Assembly (NCBI GenBank): GCA_963733445.1
Contig: CAVTDF010000003.1
Location: 470,592-534,591, forward strand
DNA length: 64,000 bases
Reading direction: 5' to 3'
DNA from: an uncultured Methanobacteriaceae archaeon
GTDB taxonomy: Archaea > Methanobacteriota > Methanobacteria > Methanobacteriales > Methanobacteriaceae
Positions 5,212-39,704 of this stretch are shown in pieces. The translations under genes and the position numbers were made by a program. The stretch's first letter is position 1. Every line of letters starts with the position of its first letter. The notes below the pieces were generated by a model. The model was not told the DNA's origin. It made no database searches and saw nothing but the letters and a program-made list of their open reading frames with translations.

Positions 5212-5222
<11 letters not shown>
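2523..5222 (-). CDS. rad50: DNA double-strand break repair ATPase Rad50
   Basis: Walker A GGNGAGKSS, zinc hook CPVC, signature SGGE, Walker B LDEPT, long coiled coil; true start MIIES at 5222 overlaps mre11 stop. Confidence 0.95.
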
Positions 5223-6347
<1,125 letters not shown>

Positions 6348-6351
<4 letters not shown>

Positions 6352-7895
6352 TAATCTCCCCCAAGTTCCTCATATTCTCTTTTCTGCTTTTTGAGAATTT
6401 CTTCCTCATTTTTAATTGATTTTGACCATTCTTCAACTATGTTGAGGTCTCCGCCAGATATTTTACCCTTGAACTCGTCTATCTTAACCAGAGTAGGTAT
6501 CCTTGTCATCAATCCAAGTACTATGGCCTCGCCTATATTAAGTGAAGGAAGCTGAGCAATCAGATCATCACTCAAGTTCTCACTGGCCCTTTGAACGTGA
6601 CTCTGGTCTGTGGGCTCAACGAGTCTGAGTATTATCATGTTATTTGCTTGAGACAAAGCATCTGAATCCAGGGATTTTGGGCTCTGACTTACCATACAGA
6701 GTCCCACAGAAAATTTACGACCTTCCCTTGCTATCCTGCTTATCCAAAGTTTAGATTCTGTCTTTCTGTTCTGAGGTGCCAGGATATGTGCCTCTTCTAG
6801 TATTAGGAATATTGGGAATTCAAGACCATCTCCACTTCTTATAAACTCTTTCCTGCTCTTTAATACTGTTCTTAGAATATGACTAACAACAACATCGGAG
6901 GCAAATTCATCAACAGAACCAAGGTCCAAGATGTTGGCTTTACCGACCTTGATGTTGTCAATAACATCCTTTGCTTCAAGAGATAGTATGTTGCCATACT
7001 TATCCTGCATGTGCTCTACTTTATTTAAAATATCGGTTATTGATTTTCTATCGGATGCTGTTGATGATTTACCTTCGGATTCTTCTGGTTCCTCTCTTAG
7101 CCATGATTCCAGCTTGTTAATTATAAGTCCAATAAAATCTTTTCCCCTTGTTGAACCCTTCTTCAGATCTTCTTGGGCCATATTGTAGGCCTTTCTAAAG
7201 TATCTCTCCTGTACGTATGCATTTGGAGGTATGTTTGAAAGTTTTTTTATCTCTCCGAATGACATGTATATCGGATTTATCAGTGGTTTTATTATGTTAA
7301 CCCTACCTTTACCAAATTCTGTATTCACATATTCTGAGTGCATGTCGAATATTAGAACACTACCGTTAACCTTTAAGAGACCATCGACAATGACTGATAT
7401 TGTGTTAGATTTACCAGCTCCTGTCATTGCCAGAACCGCCAGATGTCTAGAAACCATTTTGTTTATATCCACTTCAACTGAAACTTCCTCCTGTGTAATG
7501 AGGTTTCCTAACTTTAAACCATAGTTTCCTAACTGGAATATTCCACTAAGAACCTTGGAATCAGCCACTTTTATCTCTGTTCCTGGTGGTGCTGGTGTCC
7601 TTGGAATTTTTAGTTCATTGTCTACATCCCCAAGAATTCTGACTGTTCCCTTCACGTAATGATCGTCTCCCTCTATCATCCTGATTTTTTCTATGGTTTT
7701 TGGATCGTATATTTCACTGTTTATTGAAACACTTCCCCTTACAAGGGCTTCAATCATTCCAAGTACTTTTTTACCGTCGTATTCTAATGAAACATACTCC
7801 CCTACCTTTGGCATTTCCTTAGAGATGAAGCTCACATCAACCAGTGATGTTTCCCCTATACACCTTCCAATCACTCCGTTAGTATCATCGTTCAT
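6348..7895 (-). CDS. herA: HerA bipolar helicase/ATPase
   Basis: HAS barrel N-terminus, Walker A AMTGAGKS, Walker B LEEAH, REGRKF; 4-nt overlaps with both neighbours. Confidence 0.93.
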
Positions 7896-8965
7896 AACAT
7901 CTCCCTCCCACTCTTCTCCAGAAATCCAATTATTTTTGAAAGCCTGTCCAAATCAACTTTCCGTATAACAACATCATTATGGGCTTTTTTAAGTAGTAAA
8001 GGATACCCTTCGGCGCTTTTACTCTTAATAACACTTAAAATATGTCTTATTTGATCTTCGTTGGCTTCATAAGGCAGTTCAAACTTGAGAATATTTTTAT
8101 AATTCTCCATTCGTGCGTAGAAAATTGTGAACTTTAAACTTCTAAAGAATTCATTTCTAACTGGAAAATCTCTTTTAACCTCTTGTTTGGAAATGCTAAT
8201 ATATTGCGGGATTGAATATCCTTCCTTCCTGCTGTATCTATCAAATACTGCCATATCTGGGATTTCAGAACCGAAATATTCATGACTGGTTGATGTTTTT
8301 GATATTGCAACTACTGCGCCCTGATTTTTAAGTAGTTCGCTAATAACCATCAAATTTTCAAGACTTTCAAGGTATATCATTGCATCCGTTTTATTATCAA
8401 ACTCTTCTTCGATTTTTTCAAAAAATTTGGACGATGCTATTCGAACATTTGAATATTTTAACTCATCATTCAGAGTTATTTCAAGTTCAGGCACATATTT
8501 ATCTTTTATTCTGTCCTTTAAATCACTTTTAAGTTTACTTTCAAGAGGAGAAGGCCTTATTAGGTTTCCTAAAATGGAACCATCGAATAAAAAAACGTCG
8601 ATATCATGTTCTTCAAAGGCTTTCAGAGCATTTTTGATCTCAAATATCCCCATGTAACTTCTTAATCTATCCTCTACATGATCATGGTGAGTTATTATAT
8701 CTATTTCAGAACTTTCTATTACATTGAGCTCATCTTTGTATACTAAGCACTCAGCATCAATTGCATAAAATATAAAACTCATAAAATTCATTTTATTGAT
8801 ACTGCCATCACCTGCAGATATTGTTAAATCAAAATCTTCTTCAGCAATGGGATATTCCCGCCAGAACAAAGAGGGATCAACATCAATACTGTTAAAATCA
8901 TTATTTATTCGTTCATTTATGTTATCCTTCTTCAAAAGAGCTTTTTCATAGAGAGAATCCATCAT
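7892..8965 (-). CDS. nurA: NurA 5'-3' nuclease
   Basis: AGDGS and LFDGS acidic motifs, GYP.LL..AH C-terminal motif; position in herA-mre11-rad50 operon. Confidence 0.92.
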   Translation of the reverse strand: MMDSLYEKALLKKDNINERINNDFNSIDVDPSLFWREYPIAEEDFDLTISAGDGSINKMNFMSFIFYAIDAECLVYKDELNVIESSEIDIITHHDHVEDRLRSYMGIFEIKNALKAFEEHDIDVFLFDGSILGNLIRPSPLESKLKSDLKDRIKDKYVPELEITLNDELKYSNVRIASSKFFEKIEEEFDNKTDAMIYLESLENLMVISELLKNQGAVVAISKTSTSHEYFGSEIPDMAVFDRYSRKEGYSIPQYISISKQEVKRDFPVRNEFFRSLKFTIFYARMENYKNILKFELPYEANEDQIRHILSVIKSKSAEGYPLLLKKAHNDVVIRKVDLDRLSKIIGFLEKSGREML

Positions 8966-12689: not shown

Positions 12690-12773
12690 AATTAGTAAAC
12701 TTATTTTTATTTTTTTTGATTTTTATTATAAGATTTAAAATCCCTGTAATATTTGGCTTCGTAATTAACATTT

Positions 12774-13619
12774 TTATTTAACGATTTCAGCCATGTAACT
12801 CCTTAAATCTTCTCCAACCTCTGGGTCTTCCAGTGCTATTTCAATTGAACTTTTTAGCCATTCCACTGTGTTTCCTATGTCATATATTTTCCCTTCGAAT
12901 ACATGCCCATATATCTTTTCAAGCGATTTCATGGCATCTGTAAGCTGAATTTCACCCCCAACACCCGGAGTCAGGTTATCTATGTGATCGAATATTTCAG
13001 GTGTTAGAATGTACCTACCTGTAATTGCCAGATTTGATGGTGCATCGTGGAGTTTTGGTTTTTCAACAAGATCTTCAATTTCATAAAGATTATTAGAAAC
13101 TTTATTCCCCTTTATAATTCCATATCTCTCTACTTTTTCATCTGAAACCTTTTCTATGGCTATTGTAGATGATTCATACTTTTTATAAATGTCAATAAGC
13201 TGTTGTGTACAGGGTACATTTGACTTGGCTATGGTGTCACCTAAAAGAACTGCAAAAGCATCCCCATCAACATGCTTTTTAGCGCATGATATTGCATCCC
13301 CCAAACCTCTCTGTTTCTTCTGTCTTACGTAATAAATATCTGCCATTTCAGATATAGCCTCGATTTCATGGAGATTTTCCGTTTTTCCACAATTTCTAAG
13401 GAAGTACTCAAGTTCAAATGACTTGTCAAAGTGATCTTCTATTGATCTCTTTCCTTTACCTGTTACTATAAGAATATCATCAATTCCAGATGAAACTGCC
13501 TCTTCAACCACATACTGGATGGTTGGTTTGTTGAACACAGGTAACATCTCCTTTGGTTGTGCTTTAGTAGCTGGTAAAAATCTTGTACCAAGTCCTGCAG
13601 CAGGTATAACACCTTTCAT
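12774..13619 (-). CDS. galU: UTP-glucose-1-phosphate uridylyltransferase
   Basis: PAAGLGTRFLPATKAQPKEML, VEKP. Confidence 0.95.
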   Translation of the reverse strand: MKGVIPAAGLGTRFLPATKAQPKEMLPVFNKPTIQYVVEEAVSSGIDDILIVTGKGKRSIEDHFDKSFELEYFLRNCGKTENLHEIEAISEMADIYYVRQKKQRGLGDAISCAKKHVDGDAFAVLLGDTIAKSNVPCTQQLIDIYKKYESSTIAIEKVSDEKVERYGIIKGNKVSNNLYEIEDLVEKPKLHDAPSNLAITGRYILTPEIFDHIDNLTPGVGGEIQLTDAMKSLEKIYGHVFEGKIYDIGNTVEWLKSSIEIALEDPEVGEDLRSYMAEIVK

Positions 13620-13776
13620 ATTAAATCACCTACATAATCTGATTATATTTGAATATATAAATTCATTTAAGATTGTACTTATCTGTATTTGTGATTGTAA
13701 TTAAATTAAACATATTTAGGTAATTGTTTAATAGGAATGGAATATATAAATTTCTGAGAAATCTATGGTGTTGTAA

Positions 13777-14241
13777 ATGATAGAAGGTGTGAAGACTAAA
13801 AATCTTAAGGTGATCCCAGACGAAAGGGGTTGGCTAATGGAAATATTGAGGTGCGATGACGAATTGTATGAAAAATTTGGACAATTATACTTTACAACCG
13901 CCTATCCTGGAGTAGTTAAAGCCTGGCATTTGCACCTAAAACAGAGGGATAACTTCACATGCGTATATGGAATGGTCAAAGTTGCACTGTACGATGTGAG
14001 AAAGAACTCTGGAAGCTACGGTGAATTGAACGAATTTTTTATTGGAGAGAAAAATCCAATGATTATAAGCATTCCAACCTTTGTTTATCACGGGTTTAAA
14101 GCCATAGGAGATAATACTGCATTTTGTATTAATGTACCAAATAATCCTTACAACTACATTGAACCGGATGAATTTAGGTTAGCACCGGATACAAATGAAA
14201 TACCTTACGATTGGATTCTTGAAGGGAAGAAACACGGATAA
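13777..14241 (+). CDS. rfbC: dTDP-4-dehydrorhamnose 3,5-epimerase family
   Basis: PDERGW, KAWHLH, YHGF cupin motifs; upstream of rfbB. Confidence 0.85.
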   Translation: MIEGVKTKNLKVIPDERGWLMEILRCDDELYEKFGQLYFTTAYPGVVKAWHLHLKQRDNFTCVYGMVKVALYDVRKNSGSYGELNEFFIGEKNPMIISIPTFVYHGFKAIGDNTAFCINVPNNPYNYIEPDEFRLAPDTNEIPYDWILEGKKHG

Positions 14242-14285
14242 ATATAAAATCCTAAAAAATTATATTGAATTGAAAATTATAATAA

Positions 14286-15236
14286 ATGGTGAAAAAAATG
14301 AAAATGCTTATTACAGGAGGAGCAGGATTTATTGGCTGTAACTTTGTCCATCAGATGATTAAAAAATTCGATCATGATCTAGTTATCTTTGACAAGCTTA
14401 CATACGCTGCTAATCCAGAGTACCTGAATGATGTGAGAGATAAAATTGAATTTGTTAAGGGTGATATTGGCGACTTTGAGGCAGTAGATAAAATTATGAA
14501 GGACTGTGACATGGTAGTGAATTTTGCTGCTGAAACGCATGTTGATAGGTCAATTGAAGATCCTGGAGTATTTGTTAAAACAGATGTTATTGGAACTTAC
14601 AATCTTCTTGAATGTGTTAGAAAATACGATATCGAGAGATATCTCCAGATATCAACCGACGAAGTTTATGGAAGCATAGATAATGGTTCTTTCAGTGAAA
14701 AAAGTAATATTGATCCTTCAAGTCCCTACTCTGCAAGCAAAGCTGGTGCTGATGTGCTTGTTAGTGCGTATTATAGAACATATGGGGCCCCTGTGCTGAT
14801 AACACGTAGCAGTAACAATTTTGGACCTTATCAGTTCCCTGAAAAACTGATACCACTCTTCATATTAAACGCAATGCATGATAAACAGCTTCCAGTCTAT
14901 GGTGATGGTAAAAACATTCGCGATTGGATATATGCACCTGACAATTGTTCAGGAATTTACACTGCACTTACAAAAGGAAAACTTGGAGAAGTTTACAACA
15001 TTGGTGGTGGAAATGAAAAAAACAATCTGGAGATAACCAACTTGATACTTAAAATCCTTGGAAAACCAGAGAGTCTTATAACCTTTGTTGAAGACCGTCT
15101 AGGACATGATAGAAGGTACTCTTTAGATTCATCAAAGATAATGAAACTTGGATGGAAACCTGAATGTAATTTTGAAGATGCGCTTTTTAAAACCATTAAA
15201 TGGTACAAAGAGAATCTATCCCTTTTTATTGGGTAG
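14286..15236 (+). CDS. rfbB: dTDP-glucose 4,6-dehydratase
   Basis: TGGAGFIG, FAAETHVDRSI, STDEVYG, YSASK, DRLGHDRRY. Confidence 0.95.
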   Translation: MVKKMKMLITGGAGFIGCNFVHQMIKKFDHDLVIFDKLTYAANPEYLNDVRDKIEFVKGDIGDFEAVDKIMKDCDMVVNFAAETHVDRSIEDPGVFVKTDVIGTYNLLECVRKYDIERYLQISTDEVYGSIDNGSFSEKSNIDPSSPYSASKAGADVLVSAYYRTYGAPVLITRSSNNFGPYQFPEKLIPLFILNAMHDKQLPVYGDGKNIRDWIYAPDNCSGIYTALTKGKLGEVYNIGGGNEKNNLEITNLILKILGKPESLITFVEDRLGHDRRYSLDSSKIMKLGWKPECNFEDALFKTIKWYKENLSLFIG

Positions 15237-17937: not shown

Positions 17938-18735
17938 TTACTGATACTTCCTGAAAAATTCATCGAACTCATCTATATTCATTGGTTCAGGAATTACAAA
18001 TTTTTGATTTTCGTATATGGCTTTGGCAAGTTCTCTGTAAACTTCTGCCTGTTTTGAATCTGGAAATTTTTCTAAAACTGTTTTAGCATCGATTTCACTC
18101 TTCTGAACCATCTCATTTCGGGGTATGACCCCTATGATCCTGCTGTTGACCCTACCAGCAAACTCCTGAACAATTTCAAGCTCATTTTCAATTCCCCTGC
18201 AGTTGCAGATGATACCGCCAAAACTGCCTTTAAGTTTTTTTATTCCCTTACATATGTTGTTGGCTGCATATAGGGCCATATACTCGCCTGATGTGACTAT
18301 GTAAACTTCGTCTGCAAAGTTTTCACGAAGTGGTACAGCAAATCCACCGCAGACAACATCTCCGAGCACATCGTAGATTATCAGATCTAGATCATTTGAA
18401 AAAACACCGAGTCGTTCCAGGAGATTCATGGCTACAATTACTCCCCTTCCTGCGCATCCAACTCCAGGTTCAGGACCTCCAGATTCAACACATCTCACTT
18501 CACCGTATCCTCTAAACAAAATATCATCTATGGATACATCCTTCCTATCTTTTAAAATATCTAGTACTGTTGGTATTCTTTCACCCACCAATGTACGGGT
18601 TGTGTCTGCCTTAGGATCACAGCCTATTACAAGCACATTTTTATCTTGAGAATGGGCTGCTGCAATGTTTGATACTATGGTGGATTTTCCAATTCCGCCC
18701 TTTCCATAGATGGCAATTTTTTTGGTTTTACTCAT
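17938..18735 (-). CDS. cfbC: NifH-like Ni-sirohydrochlorin a,c-diamide reductive cyclase reductase subunit (F430 biosynthesis)
   Basis: YGKGGIGKST, GCDPKAD, ESGGPEPGVGCAGRG, DVVCGGF; no nifDK nearby. Confidence 0.8.
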   Translation of the reverse strand: MSKTKKIAIYGKGGIGKSTIVSNIAAAHSQDKNVLVIGCDPKADTTRTLVGERIPTVLDILKDRKDVSIDDILFRGYGEVRCVESGGPEPGVGCAGRGVIVAMNLLERLGVFSNDLDLIIYDVLGDVVCGGFAVPLRENFADEVYIVTSGEYMALYAANNICKGIKKLKGSFGGIICNCRGIENELEIVQEFAGRVNSRIIGVIPRNEMVQKSEIDAKTVLEKFPDSKQAEVYRELAKAIYENQKFVIPEPMNIDEFDEFFRKYQ

Positions 18736-27612: not shown

Positions 27613-29277
27613 TTAATTTAAATCTTCTTCTTGTTCGTCACTAATCTTTAAAAGTTCAATAGCCTGCTCTCTAAGTTTAAATTTCATAATTTTACCGCTT
27701 GCAGTTAAAGGAAAGCCATCAACAAAGAAGACGTGCTTAGGCACCTTATAACGAGCAATTTTTTTAAATGAATAGTCTCTAATATCCTCTTCCTCAAGTG
27801 TAATGTTATCTTCAAGTATAACAAATGCTCCAACAATCTCACCGTACTTATCATCTGGAATACCTACAACCTGCACATCTTTAATTCCAGGCATTGTATA
27901 AAAAAATTCCTCTATTTCACGTGGATAAATGTTTTCTCCACCTCGAATTATCATATCTTTAATACGGCCCACGATGGTATAATTACCATCTTCATCTACT
28001 GTAGCTAGATCTCCGCTGTGAAGCCATCCTTCTTCATCAATTGCCTCGGCTGTTTTATCGGGCATTTTATAATAACCCTTCATAACGTTGTAACCTCTAC
28101 TGCAAATCTCACCAGGTTTTTCTCCAGGTCCAATATCTTCTCCAGTTTCTGGATCAACTAATTTAACCTCACATTCTGGCAGTTTTCTCCCTACCGTTTC
28201 AACTTTTATTTCAACAGGATCATTTACACTAGTCTGTGTAAATCCAGGAGAACCTTCAGTTAGACCATAGACAATTGTTACATCTTTCATGTACATGTCC
28301 TTCATTACTTTCTTCATGGCCTCTACAGGACATGTTGAACCTGCCATTATCCCGGTTCTAAGTGATGAAAGATCAAACAGGTCAAACATTGGATGTGAAA
28401 ATTCAGCAATGAACATGGTTGGAACACCGTAGAGTGATGTGCATTTTTCTTTTTGAACAGCTGCTAGAACCATTAAAGGATCGAACTGTTCAAGCATTAC
28501 ATGAGATGCACCATGAGTCAATATGGCCATAACACCAAGTGTTATTCCAAAACAGTGAAATAATGGTACTGGGAGACATACTCTGTCCTCATCAGTATAT
28601 TTCATTCTTTCTCCAATGTAATATCCATTATTAATAATATTTCTGTGTGTTAACATCACACCTTTTGGAAAACCGGTAGTTCCTGATGTATACTGCATAC
28701 ATACTACATCTTCATTATTAAAAGTTTTTTTAGCATCTAAAAGCACCTTGTTGTCGGTGTGCTTGCCTAGAAGCAATAATTCATTGGTATTATAAAGTCC
28801 ACGATGCTTCTCCTGACCAACATAAATTACATTTTTAAGATATGGATATTCATTGCTATTCAAATTGCCCCTATTGCTTGTTTTAAGCTCTGGAACGAGT
28901 TCATATAATATATCTAAGTAATTCACATCCCTAAATCCATCTGTTATAGCAATGGCTTTCATATCCGATTGTTTTAAAACATAATCAATTTCGTGACTTT
29001 TATAAGAAGTGTTCACAGTTACAAGGACTGCACCAATCTTTGCAGTCGCAAAAAAGAATGTCAGCCAGTCGGGAACATTGAGAGCCCACATTCCAACATG
29101 GTCTCCCTTTCCAATGCCAATGGAAAGTAATCCCTTTGCTAGCATATTAACACGTTCATCAAACTCCTTGTAAGTAAATCTAAGGTTCCTATCAGGGTAA
29201 ATCATAAAATCCTTTTCATGATTCGTTTTAACCTGTTTTTCAAGGAAGTTTCCAATGGTCTCTTCGGTAAAAAGCAT
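27613..29277 (-). CDS. AMP-binding acyl-CoA synthetase
   Basis: [31 protein letters not shown]. Confidence 0.92.
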
Positions 29278-29340
29278 TTTCCCACCCCAAATTCATTTTA
29301 GTTATTATTACTGAAATATTCAGATGTAATCCTTATATTA

Positions 29341-29754
29341 TTAGTTATCTGATCCATCGGGCATCAGATGTTCGGTTAACTGTATTTTTATTGAGTCAGG
29401 TATTGGTAAACTCTTTTTTTCGATAAAATCAAAGTGCACAATAACTGCTTTTCCCCTGACCTTAAGTTTTCCATTCTGCCATGCCTCATGGCCCATTGTA
29501 AATGAGCTGTTTCCTATTTTTATTATAAATGTTCTGATCTCTACGTCTTCTCCATAGTACATTTCACATAGAAAGTCGAATTCTGTTCTTACCATTATGA
29601 GTTTCCAGTTTTCATAGCTAAGATCCAGATCAGGGGTGAACATTCTGAATATCGGATTTCTAGCTTGTTCAAACCATACAGCAAGTACTGTATTATTGAC
29701 ATGACGAAGTCCATCAATATCACCAAATCTTGGAGTTACAACTGTTTTATACAT
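29341..29754 (-). CDS. Hotdog-fold acyl-CoA thioesterase (4HBT-like)
   Basis: FGDIDGLRHVNN..W.EQAR. Confidence 0.88.
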   Translation of the reverse strand: MYKTVVTPRFGDIDGLRHVNNTVLAVWFEQARNPIFRMFTPDLDLSYENWKLIMVRTEFDFLCEMYYGEDVEIRTFIIKIGNSSFTMGHEAWQNGKLKVRGKAVIVHFDFIEKKSLPIPDSIKIQLTEHLMPDGSDN

Positions 29755-29809
29755 TTAATTCCTCTTGTTTGATCAAAAAATTATTGATTTAGATGTATTT
29801 GTTTGATAG

Positions 29810-30382
29810 TTAAATCGGTGTGTAGACCACTGCCAGTATTTTGGCATCACCATCATGGGCGTGAAGGTCATGGGGGACAACTGAATCGTAGTAAATACTA
29901 TCACCTTCAGAGACTAGATAAGTTTCTTTACCATAAAGAACTTCTATTTCACCATCCATGACAAAAATGAATTCTTCTCCCTCATGGGATGATAGTTGGT
30001 AATCATTTGTTTCGGGTGGATGTACATCTATTAAGAATGGTTCCATGTGCCTGTCTGTCTTGCCCGATGCAAGGGAATAGAAATCTAATGTACTGTCCTT
30101 TAGATTACTATTTTCACCAGAAAATCGCATCACATTCTCTGATTTGCCTGATTTAATTACAACAGGGCCTGTTTGCGGTGCATCATCTAAGAAAGTCCCA
30201 AGCCTCACGTTTAGGGCCTTTGCAATTTTTAACAATGGGGATAATGAAGGTATGAGTGCTCCACTTTCAAGTCTTTCAACCAGTTCGATACTGATCTGAC
30301 TTTCTCTTGCAAGTTCTTCTATTGAAATATTTTTACTCTCTCTTAATTGTCGTATTTTTTCTCCAACTCGGTTTTCTGGCAT
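29810..30382 (-). CDS. XRE-family regulator with C-terminal cupin
   Basis: N-terminal HTH_3 (IRQLRE..ISIEELA..LESG), [15 protein letters not shown]. Confidence 0.9.
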
Positions 30383-30559
30383 CTAATCACCTTTAAACAT
30401 CCTCATATGATATAAGTTATTAGTTTAACTATAATTAAATTGTTAAAATATTATGTTTTACAACTAATCTAATAATTTTATTTACTGATTTACCTATAAA
30501 TTTATAAATTATGATTCCATTTCTAAAAAAAATATGACTAGTATCTGTTATTCTGGATA

Positions 30560-30853
30560 TTATTTATTACTAGAATTTGTAGATTTATTGGAGTTTGTTG
30601 TGTTGTTTGCTGGTATTAAAGTGGTGGTGTTAGTCACATTCAAGACAATTCGTTTTGTAATATATACTGGTTGATAGTTAGGGTCTCCAATTGTAGTTAT
30701 CTGTTCTTGGTTGTTCAGATTTAAATTTGGCAAGGTTAAACCTTTGAGTTGATCATTTCCTATGTTGGCTACGTTTGCTGCAGATGCAACACCAAATGCA
30801 ATTAATGCAATCATTAAAACTATGAACACAGTTCCAGATTTCTTTGGATTCAT
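30560..30853 (-). CDS. Small secreted Asn/Thr-rich protein
   Basis: Signal peptide MNPKK-hydrophobic-ASA; low-complexity N/T/S tail. Confidence 0.6.
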   Translation of the reverse strand: MNPKKSGTVFIVLMIALIAFGVASAANVANIGNDQLKGLTLPNLNLNNQEQITTIGDPNYQPVYITKRIVLNVTNTTTLIPANNTTNSNKSTNSSNK

Positions 30854-31132: not shown

Positions 31133-32908
31133 TTATTCTACAGTAACACATTTAGCAAGGTTTTTAGGTTTATCCGGATCAATTCCTCTCTCAATACTGA
31201 TGTAATAGGATAGAAGTTGTAATGGTACTACGTAGGTTATAGGAGATAACATTTCAGTTATTTCCTCTTTCAGTCCAATAATGTCATCAGCTTCTGATCT
31301 TAAAGCTTCATCTTCGGATGATCCGACTGCAATTATTCTTGCACCTCTAGCCTTAACCTCTTCAATGTTACTTAAAGTCTTATCATGACTGTCTCCAGGA
31401 GGCACAACTGCCAAAACAGGGACATCGTCATCAATAAGTGCTAATGGACCATGTTTTAGTTCTCCTGCAGCATAGCCTTCCCCATGTATGTAGGTTATTT
31501 CTTTAAGTTTCAAGGCACCTTCCAATGCAGTAGGATACGAAAATCCACGTCCGATAAAGAAGAAATCATATGAATCTTTGTATTTCTTTGCTATTCGAAT
31601 TATTTCGTCCTCCATTCCTAGCGCATCTTTCACATAGCTTGGAACTAATTGAAGGGTTTCCAAAAGTTTGTTATCCCCGTCCATTGCAATAGCAAGCATA
31701 TAAATACTAATTAATTGACTTATATAGGTTTTTGTAGCTGCAACACCTATCTCCGGTCCAGCCCTAGTATATATAACATGATCAGCAACTCTTGTAGCTG
31801 TACTTCCTAAAACATTAACTATTACAAGTGTTTCTGACTTTTTATTTGCTATCTTCAGGGCTTTAAGGGTGTCTGCTGTTTCTCCAGACTGACTTATTAA
31901 TATGACAAGTGTTTCTGCATCAAGTGCTCCTTCAGAGAATTTGAATTCAGAGGCCAGTACTAAATCTGTTGGGATTCCTAAAAGAGTTTCAAATAAATAT
32001 TTCCCAACAAAAGATGCATGATAAGATGTTCCACATGCAACAAAACAAATTCTTTTGAATTTAGGAAACTTTGTTACTACCTTTTCAATTTCTGAGAATT
32101 CCATAAGTGTATTTTTTATTACTTCAGGTTGTTCATGAATTTCCTTTAACATAAAGTGTTTGTAACCACCCTTTTCTGCCATATCCGAAGTCCATTCAAT
32201 AATATGTACTTTTTTATCTAGAACATTTCCATCCATATCTTTTATTAAAACCCCATTAGGGTTTAAAATAACCATCTCATTATCATTGAGGTAGATAACC
32301 TTCTTGGTGTGTTTTAATATTGCTGGAACGTCCGATGCAATAAATGACTCAGTTTCTCCAACACCCACTATTAACGGGCTCTCCTTTCTAACACCTATTA
32401 TTTTATTTGGTTCATCAGCAGAAATGGCAGCTATTGCATAGGATCCTTGAATATCCTTTGTTGCCAACCTAGTAGCTGCTTCTAAACCATTTCCCATTTC
32501 CATATACTTCTCAATTAAGTGAGCTACAACTTCGGTATCTGTTTCTGAAGTAAATATATGGCCTTCATCCTGAAGTGTATCCTTTAATTCCTTGTAATTC
32601 TCAATTATTCCATTATGAACAACTGCGATCCTCTTTTTACAGTCTGTATGAGGATGGGCATTATTTCCAGTTGGAAGTCCATGAGTTGCCCATCTAACAT
32701 GTGCTATTCCCATATTACCTGGAATATTAGTTAAATCCAACCTTTTCTGGACATCATCTATTTTTCCTTCATCTTTCTTTATATATATGTCCCCAGAAAG
32801 TGTTGCTATTCCAACAGAGTCATATCCTCTGTATTCCAACCTTCGAACGCACTCTAAAAGTACAGGTGCTGCTTTATCGTTAAGTAAACAAGCTACAATT
32901 CCACACAT
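31133..32908 (-). CDS. glmS: Glutamine-fructose-6-phosphate aminotransferase
   Basis: [47 protein letters not shown]. Confidence 0.97.
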
Positions 32909-33291
32909 GATTTCACCAGAAAGTCATAGATGATTCTTTGATCTTTTTTTAAATAAGCAATCAAATATTTTTAAATCAACAAAATTTGAGATATCTTGAA
33001 AAAAACTCATATATCAAATATGAATCTTTGCATTTATTCTTATTTATTATTTTATGACTACCAATATCATATAAATTATCATGGTTTTACAATGATTCAA
33101 ATGTGAATACTGTAAAAAACTAGCAGATCATAACGTTTAATAAAAAATTATTGTTTATTCACTGTTTTATCTATCCAAAAAAAATTTGGATTTATATTAA
33201 AAACTAAGATTTCAATCCAAAAAAAATATTCTTGATCATAATTTATTGACGATTTTTTTTATTTTTAATAACTTAATTATCAAATTGTTTT

Positions 33292-34545
33292 CTACTTGGA
33301 TATGGTTAAAATATCCATATTTACTTCTTTAAGGTTATCACATCCAGTAAGAAACATGGCTTTCTTAAGATCATCTTTAACATACTTGTAATACATCTTA
33401 ACTGCTACTTCTCCTCCCGATATGGACATTCTTGCTAGAGGTCTGCCTATCAGTGCTATATCAGCACCTAAAGCAAGTACTTTTAACACATCAAATCCTG
33501 TTCTAACAGCACCGTCTGCCATAATCGGAATTTTTCCAGATATCTCATTTGCAATTTCTGGAAGTACTTCTGCCATTCCCTGACCACCATCAAGGACCCT
33601 ACCACCATGATTAGATACATAACACCCACTAGCACCCGAATCTAATACTTTAATCGCATCTTCGATGCACATGATCCCTTTAAAGATTACTGGTTTCTCT
33701 GTGGAGTCAACCAGTTCGGTTATGTCTTTTTCACTTTTTCTATAGACTGGTTTATTAGAAGCATTCCAATAGGTAGACCCAGCCCCATCCAGATCAACAC
33801 CAACTGCGATTGTGTTCATTTCATCTGCCAGACTTATCAACTGTAAAAGTCGCTCTTGTGACTGTGGTTTGAATATTGGTATGCCCCACCCATTGTTTTC
33901 GCCTACAATGTTAACTCCCAGATCATCAGGGCTCCCTGGAGTATTTCCTACCAATCCTATTGAACCCGATGACATTGCCCCCTTTAAAAGGCCCCTGTAT
34001 AATGCATCTTCAGGTATAACATCATTCATACTGGTTTTAACACCTGAAACACTGGCACCCATGAACGGTACGGCAATTTTCTTATCAAATATTGAAGTAG
34101 ACATTTTTGGTGTATTATGAGGCTTGATTACCCGCATCTTCAGTTTGTATCTTTGCAAAGAATTGTAATTAGCCTCAAAAGTTTTTCCCTGTCCTGCACC
34201 ACCAAACCCTATTGGTGCGCCAAACTTTTGACCAGTACACGTTCTGTCAGGTTGACCATCACAAACTGAAAACTCTCCACAGATACCAACAAGCATCTTC
34301 CGGGCTATTGAACGATAGTAATTCAAATCTTTAGTATCATGCTGTGTTTCAGTGTATGCTGTCATTTTAAGGGAAAAAATATCATCACGAACCTCTTGAA
34401 GATACTCTTTAGGCATTCCACAAACAGGACAAAGCCATGAATCTGGAAAATCCTCAATCTTTGTTCCAGGTTCTAGTTTAGTGTCCGAATCTCCCTTTTC
34501 ATCATCATATGCATAAATATTGCAGTAAGTGCAGATGTATTTCAT
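33292..34545 (-). CDS. Rubredoxin-fused FMN-dependent alpha-hydroxy-acid oxidase family protein
   Basis: N-terminal CTYC...WLCPVCG rubredoxin; IFKG, SNHGGRVLD, DGAVRTG, LIGRP FMN-oxidase motifs. Confidence 0.85.
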   Translation of the reverse strand: MKYICTYCNIYAYDDEKGDSDTKLEPGTKIEDFPDSWLCPVCGMPKEYLQEVRDDIFSLKMTAYTETQHDTKDLNYYRSIARKMLVGICGEFSVCDGQPDRTCTGQKFGAPIGFGGAGQGKTFEANYNSLQRYKLKMRVIKPHNTPKMSTSIFDKKIAVPFMGASVSGVKTSMNDVIPEDALYRGLLKGAMSSGSIGLVGNTPGSPDDLGVNIVGENNGWGIPIFKPQSQERLLQLISLADEMNTIAVGVDLDGAGSTYWNASNKPVYRKSEKDITELVDSTEKPVIFKGIMCIEDAIKVLDSGASGCYVSNHGGRVLDGGQGMAEVLPEIANEISGKIPIMADGAVRTGFDVLKVLALGADIALIGRPLARMSISGGEVAVKMYYKYVKDDLKKAMFLTGCDNLKEVNMDILTISK

Positions 34546-34581
34546 TTAATTCACCGCCTCATCTTAAATAAGGTCCCGTTC

Positions 34582-35985
34582 CTATTTTATTTCAGAGTAA
34601 CAATTTTTTGATATTATTTTTAAATCAAACAACTTGTCTGCTTCATCGGCCGAAAGAATTCCCCTTTCCACAACCAAATCCCGGATCGATTCCTTCTTTT
34701 CCAAAGCTTCCTTGGCAATTTCAGCTGCTTTCAAGTAGCCTATCTTGGGAGAAAGAAGTGTTACAAGACTTGGATTCATTCCAGCAATATTTCTTAATTT
34801 TTCCTCATCTATCCTGATGCCTTCTATAGAATTTGACTGGAAGACAGGAAGATAATTATTCATTAATTTAAGTGATTCGAGAATATTAGAAGTCATAATA
34901 GGAGTCATTACATTCAATTCAAGCTGTCCAGCTTGAGCAGCAATGGATACAGTTGTATCATTTCCTATGATCTGAAATGAAACCATGTTTAAACATTCTG
35001 CCATAACAGGATTAACTTTTCCAGGCATAATAGATGATCCAGGTTGAACAGGAGGTAAAATTATCTCACCAAGTCCCGCTGTTGGACCTGATCCCATAAG
35101 ACGTAGATCGTTTGCTATTCTTACCAATTCGATTGCAAATTCCCTGAGCGCCCCTGAAAATGCAGCCATCTGTGACCTGCTCTGTAATGATTCATGACTG
35201 TTGATTGCAGGAACGAGATCAAGGGATGTAAGTTCTACAAGATTTTTAATAACCTTATCCCGATATGATGGTGGTGTGTTAACTCCTGTTCCAGTAGCAG
35301 TGCCACCGATAGCTATTTCTAAAAGATCGTTCCTACGTTCATGAATTCTCCTTCCTGCTCGGGTTATTGCACTGCTGTATGCAAGGAATTCATCACCAAT
35401 GGTCACAGGCATTGCATCCATCAAATGCGTACGCCCAGATTTTGGTATTGAAATCATCTCCTCACCTTTACGTTTGAATGAAAGACTTAAATCTTTAATA
35501 ACATTTTGGAGGGTATCTGATTCCAAAATAATAGCAATATGTGATGCTGTGGGAAAGGTGTCATTGCTGGACTGTGACTTGTTTACATGATCATTGGGGC
35601 TTAAATACTTATAATCACCCTTTTCTCTACCTATAATCTCAAGTGCGCGATTTGCAATCACTTCGTTGATATTCATGTTAAACGAAGTGCCTGCCCCTGC
35701 CTGAAATAAATCAACTGGAAATTGATCTGCCAACTTTCCAACTAAAATCTCATCTGCAGCTTTTAAAATAGCCTCACCCCTTAGATTATCGAGAGAATTT
35801 AACTCCATATTGGTAAGTGCAGCTGCTTTTTTTACAATCACATAAGCCCTTATAAGTTCAGAGCTTTCACCTCGACCGCTAACTGGGAAATTCTCTACTG
35901 CACGTAGGGTTTGGATGCCATAGTATGTCGTGGCAGGTATCTCTTTCTTGCCTAATGAATCCTTTTCCATCCGGGTTTTCATCAT
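34582..35985 (-). CDS. aspA: Aspartate ammonia-lyase / class II fumarase superfamily (AspA-like)
   Basis: GSSIMPGKVNP, GRTHLMDA; QAGAGTS.NMN resembles AspA more than FumC (QTGSGT). Confidence 0.75.
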   Translation of the reverse strand: MMKTRMEKDSLGKKEIPATTYYGIQTLRAVENFPVSGRGESSELIRAYVIVKKAAALTNMELNSLDNLRGEAILKAADEILVGKLADQFPVDLFQAGAGTSFNMNINEVIANRALEIIGREKGDYKYLSPNDHVNKSQSSNDTFPTASHIAIILESDTLQNVIKDLSLSFKRKGEEMISIPKSGRTHLMDAMPVTIGDEFLAYSSAITRAGRRIHERRNDLLEIAIGGTATGTGVNTPPSYRDKVIKNLVELTSLDLVPAINSHESLQSRSQMAAFSGALREFAIELVRIANDLRLMGSGPTAGLGEIILPPVQPGSSIMPGKVNPVMAECLNMVSFQIIGNDTTVSIAAQAGQLELNVMTPIMTSNILESLKLMNNYLPVFQSNSIEGIRIDEEKLRNIAGMNPSLVTLLSPKIGYLKAAEIAKEALEKKESIRDLVVERGILSADEADKLFDLKIISKNCYSEIK

Positions 35986-36755
35986 TTATCTCCTATATTC
36001 TCTCTTTTTTGATTCAGTTGCTCCCTGGCTTTAGCAATTGCAATTAGGGGAGGAACACCCTTCGGACACACACGTCGACAATTCCCATGAAATTCACAAT
36101 CCCACCATCCACGAGGAATATCAGCAATTTTAAGGCGCTCTATTCCATTTGCCTCTCTTGGATCGATGTAGAATCTGTATAGTTTGGCAAGAGCTGCAGG
36201 ACCAAGATATTCTGGATCGCTACCATCAACTGGACAAGACCCAAAGCATGCTCCACAGAGGATACAGTTAGTATAGAGTTCTAATTCAGGTATTTTCGCA
36301 GGATCCATATGCCTCTCCTTTTCAGGAGTAGGATCTCCTGGTTTAAATACAGGTTCTACATATTTGTAAAAATCGAAAAATTTGCTCATATCTACTATGA
36401 GATCTCTAATTACTGGAAGGTGTGGTAAAGGCTCAACCAAAATCTCCTCTTCAGGATTCCATTCTACAGTCTCTTCAAGAGCAGGATATGGTGATAGGGG
36501 AATTTTAAGTTCTCCTTTTAAAAGAGATTTTATCTGTGTTCTGCAGGCTAGTCTTGGGACTTTGTTAATCAGCATTGCACATGTACCACACACAGCACCC
36601 CTGCATGAGTAGTGAAATGCAATAGAATCATCAAATTTTTGTTGAAACTGGAATAAAGCACCCAGTACTGTCATGCCCTGAGTCGGCTCCAGTTTAAATG
36701 TATCATAACGAGGTTTCTCTATTCCATCATAATATCGGTACACCTTCAATTTCAT
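35982..36755 (-). CDS. sdhB: Succinate dehydrogenase/fumarate reductase Fe-S subunit
   Basis: CRGAVCGTC..C (2Fe-2S), CILCGACFGSCP, CEFHGNCRRVCP; 257 aa, no CCG domain. Confidence 0.9.
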   Translation of the reverse strand: MKLKVYRYYDGIEKPRYDTFKLEPTQGMTVLGALFQFQQKFDDSIAFHYSCRGAVCGTCAMLINKVPRLACRTQIKSLLKGELKIPLSPYPALEETVEWNPEEEILVEPLPHLPVIRDLIVDMSKFFDFYKYVEPVFKPGDPTPEKERHMDPAKIPELELYTNCILCGACFGSCPVDGSDPEYLGPAALAKLYRFYIDPREANGIERLKIADIPRGWWDCEFHGNCRRVCPKGVPPLIAIAKAREQLNQKRENIGDK

Positions 36756-38509
36756 TAGTATACACGCTCCTTTGGTTGAAACATTCCCAAAGTAACAGAT
36801 TTATAACTTAATTCAATGCTTCCATCCTTTAAAATTGCTAATGTATGTTTAAGATAGTTATCATCATCACGGTCCGGATAATCTATCCTTGTATGCGAAC
36901 CTCGGCTCTCTTCTCTTTTAATAGCCCCGTATGCTACCACTTCAGCAATTTTAAGCATTCCTTCCAACTCTAAAAGCTGTATAAGTGTTTGATTTAGTGT
37001 TAAATCCTTATTATTGGGAGTGAGGTGAGATAACTTTCCTTGCATATTTTTAATTTCCTTTAGTCCTTCTTCCATTATTTGACCATCACGAAATATTCCG
37101 AATTTATGGAACATAGTTTTTGCCATATTTTCTTTAACCTTAAAAATGCTTGCGCCCTCCCTTCGTCCCATTATTTCTTCAATTTTAGATTCAACTGCCT
37201 TTACTGCAGATTTCATGTGTAGTGAATCAGGTTCGGATAGTTCTTTTATATCTTTAATAATTCTATCAGCCACCAATCGACCGTATACTACTGTTTCAAG
37301 GAGAGAATTTCCACCTAATCTATTCGCACCATGTACACTAATACATGCACATTCTCCAGCAGCATACAATCCTGGAAGTATTGTAACCCCGTTGGTATCC
37401 ACGTCGATTCCGCCCATGGAGTAGTGCTGGCCCGGTTGAACTGGAACCTGATCGTTAATAGGATCAACATCAGCAAAATCCATTGCTATCTGTCTTATTC
37501 CGGGTAATCGTTCTTTGATACGATCAGCACCCAGATGGGTTAGATCGAGATGTACATAACCACCTTCGTAACCTCTTCCTTCTCTGATTTCCTGTTCAAT
37601 TGATCTAGCAACAACATCGCGAGGAGCTAGATCCATAGAGTTGGGAGCATAACTTTTCATGAAACGTTCCCCACGACTATTAATCAGAATACCTCCTTCA
37701 CCCCTGGCTCCTTCGCTCATCAAAATATTTGTACCGTATAAAGTGGTAGGATGAAACTGTACAAACTCCATATCCTTCAATGGCACACCTACATCGAGTG
37801 CAAGTGCCTGACCATCACCTGTGTTGATGAGAGCATTTGTTGATCTGTTGAATATCCTACCAAATCCACCAGTAGCCATTAAAACAACTTTTGAAATAAA
37901 GCCATGAATTTTACCAGTCATGATCTCAATGGCTGTACATCCAATGCATCTTCCACTGTCCTTTACAAGTGATGTTACAAAAAATTCCTCATAAACAGGA
38001 ATATTTTTATTTAATACTTGTTCATAGAGGGTATGGAGCGCATTGTGCCCGGTTCGATCTGCAGCATAACATGTTCTCGGAAATCCTGCACCTCCAAAGG
38101 GGCGCTGGGCAATCTTACCATTTTCCAGCCTAGACCAGACAGTTCCCATATGTTCCAGTTCGTAAACAGTTGCTGTTGCCTCACGACACATACGCTCTAC
38201 AGCATCTTGATCAGCAAGGTAATCAGATCCTTTAACAGTATCATAGGCATGCATTTCCCAGCTATCAGAAGTATCATCGTCACCTGGAACGTTGCCTAAT
38301 GATGCATTCATTCCTCCCTGAGCTGCAACCGAATGAGATCTAAGTGGATGAACCTTTGAAACTACAGCACCATTGATGCCAGAATCTGAGACCTGGAGAG
38401 CTGCCCGGAGTCCTGTAAGCCCACCTCCAATAATGATCACATCATGGTAATGAATCGATGTACTTGCAACACCATCTTCTTCCTCAGCTTTAAAATATTT
38501 AAGTACAAT
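36755..38509 (-). CDS. sdhA: Succinate dehydrogenase/fumarate reductase flavoprotein; 5' end uncertain (GTG 38440 or non-canonical ATT 38509)
   Basis: [52 protein letters not shown]. Confidence 0.9.
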
Positions 38510-38942
38510 AACTTATCCCTCCTATTACTATCAGTTATCTGGAAAAAAATCCCAGAAATAGGTGAATTAAGTGTTTAGTCTGATTTTCTTAATTTATTTA
38601 GGTAAATCTAGACATCCAAAGGTATTTATATCTAATCTAATTTTAAATAGATTTTTCACAAATAATGTACTAATTCACTCGATGTTTCAGTGTTTAATTT
38701 ATAATTTAAAGAATTAATATTTTTTGAATTTAGGTAAAACCTCTAATAACTAATGAATGCAAATGTACTACTAGATACTAATCATTAAATAAATAAAATC
38801 AACTATTACAACTTGGTAATATTTAATAAAAGCAGCAAGCCCAAAAATATATTTAAAATGTAAACAATTTTTCATTAACTGTTTAAAGAAATTTTATATA
38901 TATAATTTATAAAAATTTCATAGAATTAAGTTAATAAATTCA

Positions 38943-39704
38943 ATGGTGAAGTTTAAAATGAATCCAAAAATTGGAAATCTCCTATATGCAGGAAAAGCAA
39001 AGGATGTATATGAAACAGACGACCCTGAAAGAGTTATTGTTAAATTCAGAGACGATATAACGGCTGGCGATGGGGTTAAATCTGAAAAACTGGTTAAAAA
39101 AGGTTTTTTCAATTCTGTGATTTCTTCAAAGTTCTTTGAAGTTCTTGAAAATGCCGGAATTAAAACTCAGTATATTGGATTAATTGAACCGGGTTACATG
39201 CTTTGTAAGAAGTTAGATATGTTACCATTGGAAGTTATAACCAGGAATATAGCAGCAGGAAGTCTTTTAAAAAAATTTCCTTTCAAAACTAGACAGGAAT
39301 TAAATCCACCTGTAATTCAGATGGATTATAAAAATGATGAATATCATGACCCAATGTTGAACGATTCCATTACCATTGCCCTGGGTCTTGCTAATCAAGA
39401 ACAACTCGATATGATAAGGGATATTACCCTCAACATCAATAGTATATTAAAGGATTTCCTTTTGAGTAAAGATATTCTATTTCCTGATTTTAAGATAGAA
39501 TACGGATTTGATTCCTCTGGTAATATTGTACTTGGTGATGAGATAAGCCCTGACACATGCAGATTTTGGGACTCAAAAACTTGTGAAGTTTTAGATAAGG
39601 ATCTGTTCAGAAAAGGGGATTCCGGTGTTATGGATGCCTATGTGAAGGTTGCATCCCTTATACTATCAGAAAAAGATATTAAAAAATGGAAAATTGAACT
39701 TTAA
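38943..39704 (+). CDS. purC: SAICAR synthase
   Basis: [38 protein letters not shown]. Confidence 0.96.

Follow-up and report, generated by a model that had tools for sequence, protein, structure and literature searches.

Organization of the locus

We describe a set of four genes in a 64-kb stretch of DNA (hereafter, the window) from an uncultured Methanobacteriaceae archaeon. All four lie on the minus strand. With domains called by Pfam and NCBIfam-type profile models, they encode the flavoprotein of a succinate dehydrogenase (SDH)/fumarate reductase-type enzyme (sdhA, 36755–38509), its iron–sulfur subunit (sdhB, 35982–36755; 257 aa), a lyase with Lyase_1 and FumaraseC_C domains (34582–35985; 467 aa), and a 417-aa protein in which rubredoxin is fused to FMN_dh, a flavin mononucleotide (FMN)-type dehydrogenase domain (33292–34545). 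The original prediction for this DNA had described four co-oriented genes, the first three of them overlapping, and reading the junctions from the sequence confirmed this. The stop codon of sdhA and the start codon of sdhB have one nucleotide in common (TAATG), and a 4-nt overlap (ATGA) connects the end of sdhB with the start of the lyase gene. The lyase and FMN genes are separated by a 36-nt gap (34546–34581), which contains the Shine–Dalgarno-like sequence GAGGCGGTGA. The flanking genes glmS (31133–32908) and purC (38943–39704) were found on either side of the set, as had been stated. Two oligo-T tracts read from the sequence 3′ of the FMN gene (33177–33226, minus strand) likely form an archaeal terminator region, and an AT-rich spacer of ~380 nt lies between these tracts and glmS. 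The operon thus most likely ends after the FMN gene, at the tracts and spacer.

Metatranscriptome contigs from close relatives, 88–97% alike and drawn from three peat or wetland datasets, span all four genes and show that the set is transcribed in situ, with DNA carry-over a possible contributor. Some of these RNA contigs cross the sdhA/sdhB and sdhB/lyase junctions.

Conservation across archaea

One genome per species was scanned for relatives of the rubredoxin-FMN protein, which yielded 73 loci (labelled with L numbers) with flanks of 8–10 kb. SdhA, SdhB, lyase, PurC and GlmS were placed in these loci by tblastn and open reading frame (ORF) clustering. Of 72 loci, 53 had SdhA beside the rubredoxin-FMN gene and 48 had SdhB there. 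The linked loci came from Methanobacteriaceae, Methanomicrobia, Bathyarchaeia and one Thorarchaeote, representing three archaeal phyla, and their gene orders varied. Co-occurrence of the FMN gene with sdhAB, a point on which the original prediction depended, is therefore tight across phyla and gene orders. Recurrence in ~50 independent loci is far beyond chance.

The arrangement of the window, with the sdhA–sdhB–lyase–rubredoxin-FMN genes between purC and glmS, was found throughout one Methanobacterium clade (~25 loci, 73–96% identity). A second Methanobacterium clade (L033–L040, including one complete genome) carries the same set of four in another neighbourhood. These differing neighbourhoods indicate that the module moved at least once within the genus. 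In the second clade the set is preceded by a co-oriented gene directly 5′ of sdhA (L034:2292–3641; also L033, L035, L037 and L040), encoding a glucose/sorbosone-dehydrogenase-like (GSDH) beta-propeller with a C-terminal Cys-rich DUF2769 domain. The nearest homologues (95–70% identity) were those of Methanobacterium lacus, M. paludis and Methanobacterium metagenome-assembled genomes (MAGs) recovered from fen, bog, palsa and soil samples. The FMN protein is encoded in M. paludis, and the module in M. lacus, a named species whose genome has been sequenced.

Five loci from MAGs of Methanomicrobia and other Euryarchaeota (L045, L048, L066, L076 and L078) have the order fumC–sdhA–sdhB–rubredoxin-FMN. 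In Bathyarchaeia a tight rubredoxin-FMN–sdhA–sdhB order prevails, with a 4-nt overlap of the rubredoxin-FMN stop and sdhA start in L071. The Thorarchaeote (L073) has rubredoxin-FMN–korA–korB–fumC–sdhA–sdhB. Among Methanobacteriaceae, the lyase is cleanly missing from L022, L026, L036 and L039, which retain sdhA–sdhB–rubredoxin-FMN. The slot that holds an aspartase-like lyase in the window is thus empty in some sister modules and occupied by a genuine FumC in others. The FumC of L066, taken as a tested representative, passed the fumC_II equivalog model, as did the FumC of L042, which is more distantly placed. The earlier view of aspA as a core part of the operon was accordingly not upheld. Retention of the other three genes where the lyase is absent or swapped defines a conserved core of SdhA, SdhB and the rubredoxin-FMN protein. 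Wherever an accessory lyase is present it is a fumarate-forming enzyme, aspartase-like or FumC, and its role may be that of an accessory member of the module that supplies fumarate. In L018 the lyase survives as a 91-aa remnant (L018:7569–7841).

Properties of the encoded proteins

SdhA aligned end to end with E. coli SdhA (1NEK_A), its best match in the PDB (517 bits). It scored 774 bits against TIGR01812 (cut-off 567), 371 bits against PF00890 (FAD_binding_2) and 129 bits against PF02910 (Succ_DH_flav_C). The histidine for covalent attachment of flavin adenine dinucleotide (FAD), in the RSHS motif, is present as predicted. By comparison with E. coli SdhA the dicarboxylate site is complete, its His/Arg/His/Arg set lying in the motifs HPT, RD, HY.MGG and HGANRLG. 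Catalytic and FAD motifs were kept in 48–52 of the 53 module SdhAs, and the hinge Thr is Ser in 29. An identity as L-aspartate oxidase (NadB) was considered and rejected: the nadB models scored under their cut-offs, and an SdhB partner is encoded alongside.

The sdhA frame is open to 38512, and a start at 38509 requires a non-canonical ATT codon. The first canonical start, and the one called, is a GTG at 38440 (36755–38440). A Shine–Dalgarno-like AGGAGGG, read from the sequence, lies 7 nt 5′ of the ATT (38517–38523, minus strand). The longer frame adds a 25-residue N-terminal extension that is conserved in relatives, which begin with ATG, GTG or TTG at or beside the homologous codon. Because of the open frame, the upstream AGGAGGG and the conserved extension, the ATT at 38509 is accepted as the probable start. 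Several close relatives, L019 and L020 among them, likewise have no ATG, GTG or TTG at the homologous position.

SdhB scored 198 bits against TIGR00384 (cut-off 88) and carries the motifs for three clusters: CRGAVCGTC...C for [2Fe-2S], and CILCGACFGSCP and CEFHGNCRRVCP for [4Fe-4S] and [3Fe-4S]. The original prediction had remarked that the protein is only 257 aa long, as if it were short; this is an ordinary SdhB length, and it includes an insertion of 24 residues (approximately aa 81–104) relative to E. coli FrdB and SdhB. The Trp and His residues (FWW/His) of the E. coli SdhB quinone site are absent. Bathyarchaeial SdhB is of another subtype, in which the 2Fe-2S motif has an Asp ligand and the insertion is missing.

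The lyase passed the NF008909 model (610; cut-off 510) and fell under the equivalog cut-offs for both aspartase (TIGR00839, 541 vs 681) and fumarase (fumC_II, 485 vs 665). Its best PDB match was the aspartase AspB of Bacillus sp. YM55-1 (1J3U), over the full length and at 454 bits, compared with ≤394 for fumarases. Its motifs are mixed: GSSIMPGKVNPVMAE, NPVMAE and GAGTSFNMN are aspartase-like, whereas SQSSND, where aspartases have SQSTND, is fumarase-like. The SS-loop, GSSIMPGKVNPVM (pattern GSSxMPxKxNP), is of the aspartase type. On these profile and motif comparisons the lyase is assigned to the aspartase clade of the class II fumarase/aspartase superfamily.

The fourth protein begins with a rubredoxin domain (aa 1–54; 34384–34545, minus strand), recognized by PF00301 at 54.9 bits and matched by PDB rubredoxins at E ~1e-13. 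Its cysteines (Cys 5, 8, 39 and 42) are conserved wherever the domain is present, with gaps only in copies that lack it. The FMN_dh TIM barrel follows (aa ~119–417; 33295–34191; PF01070, 183 bits, cut-off 24.9). The domains in the earlier label of rubredoxin-FMN oxidase were therefore found; the term oxidase is unproven. An exact-sequence look-up of this protein gave no match. In two independent Methanomicrobia MAGs (L076:7700–8000 and L078:6650–7160) the rubredoxin domain has decayed with the same in-frame stop, 3′ of which the FMN ORF restarts, keeping the CX5CX7C motif described below.

That motif (C89, C95 and C103; 34237–34281, minus strand) lies just before the barrel, and a fourth extra cysteine, C402, is encoded at 33340–33342. 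These four were present in 64–67 of the 67 family members. They probably form an Fe-S or metal site beside the flavin barrel. The AlphaFold2 model had a mean confidence (pLDDT) of 83, and its sole long low-confidence stretch was the loop 93–117, in the region of three of these cysteines. Low confidence is as expected there for a cofactor-dependent site, such as the probable Fe-S or metal centre. The top 50 Foldseek matches all belonged to the alpha-hydroxy-acid oxidase family (glycolate, mandelate, long-chain hydroxy-acid and lactate oxidases, and flavocytochrome b2), with TM-scores of 0.72–0.81 among the closest. The signature residues tested were, in glycolate oxidase (GOX) numbering, Tyr24, Tyr129, Asp157, Arg164, Lys230, His254 and Arg257. 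The family Lys/His/Arg/Asp set, here K289, H313, R316 and D251, was invariant in 67 sequences from three phyla.

Absence of a membrane-anchor gene from the locus

The membrane anchor is the basis on which complex II enzymes are classified. The original prediction noted that no hydrophobic SdhC/D or CCG-domain partner accompanies the four genes, and none was found among the window ORFs scanned. Synteny annotation covered the region from 25 to 45 kb of the window, and Pfam models run over 30 additional ORFs (≥150 aa, the majority of those left) gave no Sdh_cyt, CCG or TfrB-type ORF. The intergenic regions flanking the set contain no plausible small ORF. Among the related loci, no co-oriented ORF with three or more transmembrane segments was found within 3 kb in 52 of 53. 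In the window and nearly all related loci, then, the module is without an operon-encoded anchor, the feature by which the holoenzyme of complex II types A–F is defined. Methanobacteriales are not known to possess respiratory quinones.

Fumarate reduction in methanogens is generally ascribed to the thiol-dependent TfrAB. The module is distinct from this enzyme, in agreement with the original prediction. It scored 456 against the TfrA model NF004900 (cut-off 718) and 126 against the TfrB model NF004898 (cut-off 385), and its SdhB is without a CCG domain (PF02754). In a rough neighbour-joining tree, which carries no support values, SdhA did not group with the Tfr-type flavoprotein of MSBL1. A query with the TfrB-like protein of MSBL1, bearing on the question of TfrAB in Methanobacterium, returned other CCG proteins as its best 120 matches.

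To approach the origin of the module, 1.84 billion cluster representatives were searched with SdhA. No relative from beyond the module's own cluster exceeded ~50% identity over its full length. The best-scoring representative was an MSBL1 ‘fumarate reductase’ of 48% identity, which lies elsewhere in the neighbour-joining tree. This protein belongs to a Tfr-type cluster (L081:5173–11232) in which malic enzyme, fumA and fumB (class I fumarase alpha and beta), an SdhA-like protein and a 510-aa SdhB+CCG protein are encoded in succession. In the tree the module SdhAs fell into two separate clades, one euryarchaeal and Thorarchaeotal, the other Bathyarchaeial. One nearest outside relative was examined for each clade, and in both the Sdh_cyt genes lie directly 5′ of sdhA, as sdhC–A–B (L082) and sdhC–D–A–B (L083). 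Since there are two clades and each has an anchored nearest relative of this kind, it is probable that on at least two occasions an anchored SDH shed its anchor and came to be linked to the rubredoxin-FMN gene. These two anchored relatives, set against the module loci without an anchor, give the strongest support to the suggestion in the original prediction that the FMN protein may substitute for the anchor, and the data fit a role for it as electron partner in the anchor's place.

The same observations bear on a quite different explanation: an ordinary complex II or an enzyme like Tfr, with its third subunit (SdhC/D, an SdhE-type CCG protein or an HdrD-like protein) encoded elsewhere and the rubredoxin-FMN gene a conserved neighbour of no mechanistic relevance. 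Our view extends over 64 kb here and over flanks of 8–10 kb in the relatives, which leaves room for a distant anchor or TfrAB gene and in that measure weakens the case for replacement. Bathyarchaeial contigs also have genes for cytochrome b and Rieske proteins in the vicinity, so that quinones may exist in that group. Yet sdhC/D is still part of the operon in the outside relatives examined, whereas 52 of the 53 module loci show no anchor, and three phyla and two SdhAB lineages have kept the linkage to the rubredoxin-FMN gene, with translational overlap. Further, SdhB does not have the quinone-site residues of the E. coli protein, and Methanobacteriales would, as far as we know, have no quinone to serve. 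An unlinked third subunit therefore appears improbable, and replacement of the anchor by the rubredoxin-FMN protein is the reading carried forward here.

The original prediction regarded the four genes as acquired, with a higher GC content than their flanks and an insertion between glmS and purC. Their total GC is indeed higher (0.39–0.41, compared with 0.358 ± 0.025 for other ORFs). GC at third codon positions is normal (0.28–0.30 vs 0.284 ± 0.042; z −0.1 to 0.5), so the excess arises from amino-acid composition and not from foreign codon usage. Recent acquisition or insertion finds no support, given this normal composition and the lack of any relative above 50% identity over full length outside the module's own cluster. 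Recent horizontal transfer was rejected on these grounds, there being no close donor lineage.

Proposed reaction and alternative explanations

We propose that the module encodes a soluble, quinone-independent 2-hydroxy-acid:fumarate oxidoreductase to which the lyase supplies fumarate, and we assign this reading a probability of roughly 0.45. SdhA, with its FAD, and SdhB, with three Fe-S clusters, would act as a fumarate reductase, and their redox partner would be the rubredoxin–Cys4 site–FMN dehydrogenase instead of a membrane anchor. On the model of flavocytochrome b2, an (S)-2-hydroxy acid would be oxidized at the FMN barrel, with L-malate and L-lactate as the obvious candidates. Electrons would then pass singly, through the Cys4 site and/or the rubredoxin, to an exposed distal cluster of SdhB, and from there to FAD and fumarate. 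In anchored enzymes it is this distal cluster that faces SdhC/D. The lyase would make fumarate from aspartate in this Methanobacterium lineage, or from malate in the FumC lineages. In the latter case, with malate also as donor, fumarate/malate would be disproportionated to oxaloacetate and succinate. The potentials of 2-hydroxy-acid couples are about −170 to −190 mV, those of rubredoxin about −60 to +30 mV, and that of fumarate/succinate +30 mV; with these values the proposed electron chain would run downhill. We infer the docking of the proteins, the direction of electron flow and the identity of the substrate.

Several observations weigh against this proposal. Within the FMN protein, the position of the canonical Tyr24 is occupied by an invariant Gly113 in the profile alignment, and no alignment was obtained over the part where Tyr129 and Arg164 would be expected. 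It may consequently act on a substrate other than the classical ones of the family. Invariant K226 and Y268-R269-K270 may serve as stand-ins for Tyr129 and Arg164. The rubredoxin domain is absent in L061–63 and L066 and decayed in L076 and L078, all of them linked to SdhAB, and must be dispensable in some lineages; these lineages still hold two or all three of the motif cysteines. In the metatranscriptomes, no RNA contig crossed the 36-nt gap between the lyase and FMN genes, where contigs were only ~150–330 nt long and thus little informative. About a quarter of rubredoxin-FMN genes stand alone, in Asgard loci (behind a major facilitator superfamily transporter) and in a derived paralogue clade of Methanobacteriaceae, which indicates that the enzyme can function without SdhAB. 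Finally, the Bathyarchaeial and Thorarchaeotal modules have genes of the tricarboxylic acid (TCA) cycle as neighbours (citrate synthase, PrpD, korAB).

The last two points would be expected if the genes were clustered by pathway. The rubredoxin-FMN protein would then be an acceptor-linked dehydrogenase of L-malate, or of another TCA-related hydroxy acid, co-located with SdhAB because the steps from succinate through fumarate and malate to oxaloacetate are consecutive, and each enzyme would have its own, separately encoded redox partner. The neighbouring citrate synthase, PrpD, 2-oxoacid:ferredoxin oxidoreductase and FumC genes in Bathyarchaeia and Thorarchaeota are explained equally well in this way, as are the stand-alone copies and the presence of FumC within the module in several lineages. 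But the rubredoxin-FMN gene still adjoins sdhAB where there is no lyase to connect the two steps (L022, L026, L036, L039 and most Bathyarchaeia), and the aspartase-like lyase of the Methanobacterium lineage breaks the linear path from succinate to oxaloacetate. Clustering by pathway also leaves an anchor-less SdhAB partnerless, and the module has its rubredoxin-FMN gene where the examined outside relatives have anchor genes. We consider this explanation unlikely, and prefer the direct partnership of the FMN protein with SdhAB.

The direction of the reaction is a separate matter, and here too there are points against fumarate reduction. The covalent-FAD His of SdhA is usually associated with succinate oxidation, and Bathyarchaeial SdhA passes the ‘sdhA_forward’ equivalog model. 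Both would suit a module working oxidatively, with SdhAB oxidizing succinate, the FMN enzyme oxidizing a hydroxy acid, and rubredoxin feeding enzymes that detoxify O2 or reactive oxygen species. In anaerobes, rubrerythrin, superoxide reductase and ROO-type enzymes usually receive their electrons from rubredoxin, and the loci come from peat, fen and rhizosphere, habitats with pulses of O2. However, no rubredoxin-dependent detoxification gene is conserved beside the module, and the rubredoxin is fused, not free, and has disappeared from some of the linked lineages. The presence of a lyase that makes fumarate also suits the consumption of fumarate by the module better than its production. An oxidative role seems very unlikely on balance, and fumarate reduction remains the favoured direction.

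A broader interpretation, tentative and rather doubtful, is that the module represents a new class of complex II relatives, probably arisen at least twice from anchored SDHs. An FMN–[Fe-S]–rubredoxin dehydrogenase would be docked on SdhB in the anchor's place, forming a soluble 2-hydroxy-acid:fumarate oxidoreductase, which in some lineages would belong to a wider set of rubredoxin-fused enzymes.

Relation to known systems

The pair belongs to the SdhA and SdhB families in all the sequence tests applied. With complex II, as represented by E. coli SdhAB (1NEK) and FrdAB (1KF6), the module shares the SdhA domains, the FAD His, the dicarboxylate site and the three cluster motifs of SdhB. It differs in having neither SdhC/D nor SdhE/F in the window or in 52 of the 53 related loci, in the SdhB insertion and missing quinone-site residues, and in having as its third gene a soluble rubredoxin-FMN dehydrogenase. 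A parallel in methanogen-related archaea is the Tfr type, comprising TfrAB, reportedly the thiol:fumarate reductase of Methanothermobacter (Heim et al. 1998), and the MSBL1 cluster. These are soluble and quinone-independent, as is proposed for the module, pair an SdhA-like with an SdhB-like protein, and the MSBL1 cluster, like the module, is associated with fumarate-forming enzymes. TfrB, however, has a C-terminal HdrD-like CCG domain (510 aa in the MSBL1 protein), whereas the module SdhB has none in its 257 aa.

The FMN protein resembles flavocytochrome b2, the yeast L-lactate:cytochrome c oxidoreductase (1FCB; TM-score ~0.7), in its FMN_dh barrel, its Lys/His/Arg/Asp residues and its small N-terminal one-electron carrier domain, which would hand electrons on to an external acceptor. 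The carrier is heme b5 in flavocytochrome b2 and rubredoxin here. The module's protein has in addition the four invariant cysteines, and Tyr143 of flavocytochrome b2, the equivalent of Tyr24, is replaced by Gly. Soluble single-chain fumarate reductases, such as Shewanella flavocytochrome c3 and the NADH:fumarate reductases of Klebsiella and trypanosomes, follow the same concept, a cytoplasmic or periplasmic enzyme with a soluble donor module in place of the quinone pool. In these, no SdhB is present and heme or FMN/NADH domains are fused to the flavoprotein, whereas the module keeps SdhAB and would have its donor as a separate protein.

No description of the module was found in the literature searched. 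Its genes are already present in public genomes under generic names such as ‘alpha-hydroxy-acid oxidizing protein’, and a role would be gained for this widespread uncharacterised family if the proposal were true. The complex II family would also gain a new solution to electron input, an SdhAB core with its anchor swapped for a soluble rubredoxin-flavoenzyme. Strict anaerobes free of quinones would be seen to drive or exploit the high-potential fumarate/succinate couple. The proposal, which comes from comparative genomics, would surprise specialists in complex II and in methanogen bioenergetics.

Neighbouring genes

Rubredoxin-fused enzymes recur beside the module (L004:2604–4091 and 12705–14324; also L042, L043, L048 and L069). 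One is a fusion with a pyruvate-oxidase-like thiamine pyrophosphate enzyme, which scored 507 bits against NF006377, below the cut-off of 742, and the other a fusion with a glutamate-synthase-type FMN/Fe-S domain (GltS-like). A small Cys-rich DUF2769 protein is often encoded nearby too. These genes may possibly form an island of rubredoxin-fused redox enzymes; if so, and if the broader interpretation above is true, the set could oxidize lactate to acyl phosphate with fumarate as the sink, and hydrogenotrophic methanogens and Bathyarchaeia would then have a route for redox and energy apart from methanogenesis.

The flanks of the Bathyarchaeial loci (L067–L074) contain genes for citrate synthase, PrpD/MmgE, a ComA-like protein (phosphosulfolactate synthase family) and a GlcD-like FAD oxidase, as well as a cytochrome b and a cytochrome b5/Rieske fusion. 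A role in coenzyme M or sulfolactate metabolism, suggested by the ComA-like neighbour, was considered and dropped: the gene is divergently oriented and occurs in one phylum only. The bins of two of these contigs bear bacterial labels (Limnocylindrales and Moraniibacteriota). L067 at least, which shares the archaeal synteny, is probably mis-binned.

Elsewhere in the window, a complete archaeal DNA end-resection operon (2523–8965, minus strand) encodes NurA, HerA, a Mre11-like phosphoesterase and Rad50 with its zinc hook. A NifH/frxC-family protein is encoded at 17938–18735 (minus strand), with nifDK not nearby; such proteins in methanogens are usually the CfbC component of coenzyme F430 synthesis. 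Located 3′ of glmS (27613–30853, minus strand) is a block conserved in ~25 relatives, which encodes an AMP-forming acyl-CoA ligase, a 4HBT thioesterase, a helix-turn-helix–cupin regulator and an Asn/Thr-rich protein of 97 aa that has a signal or transmembrane segment.

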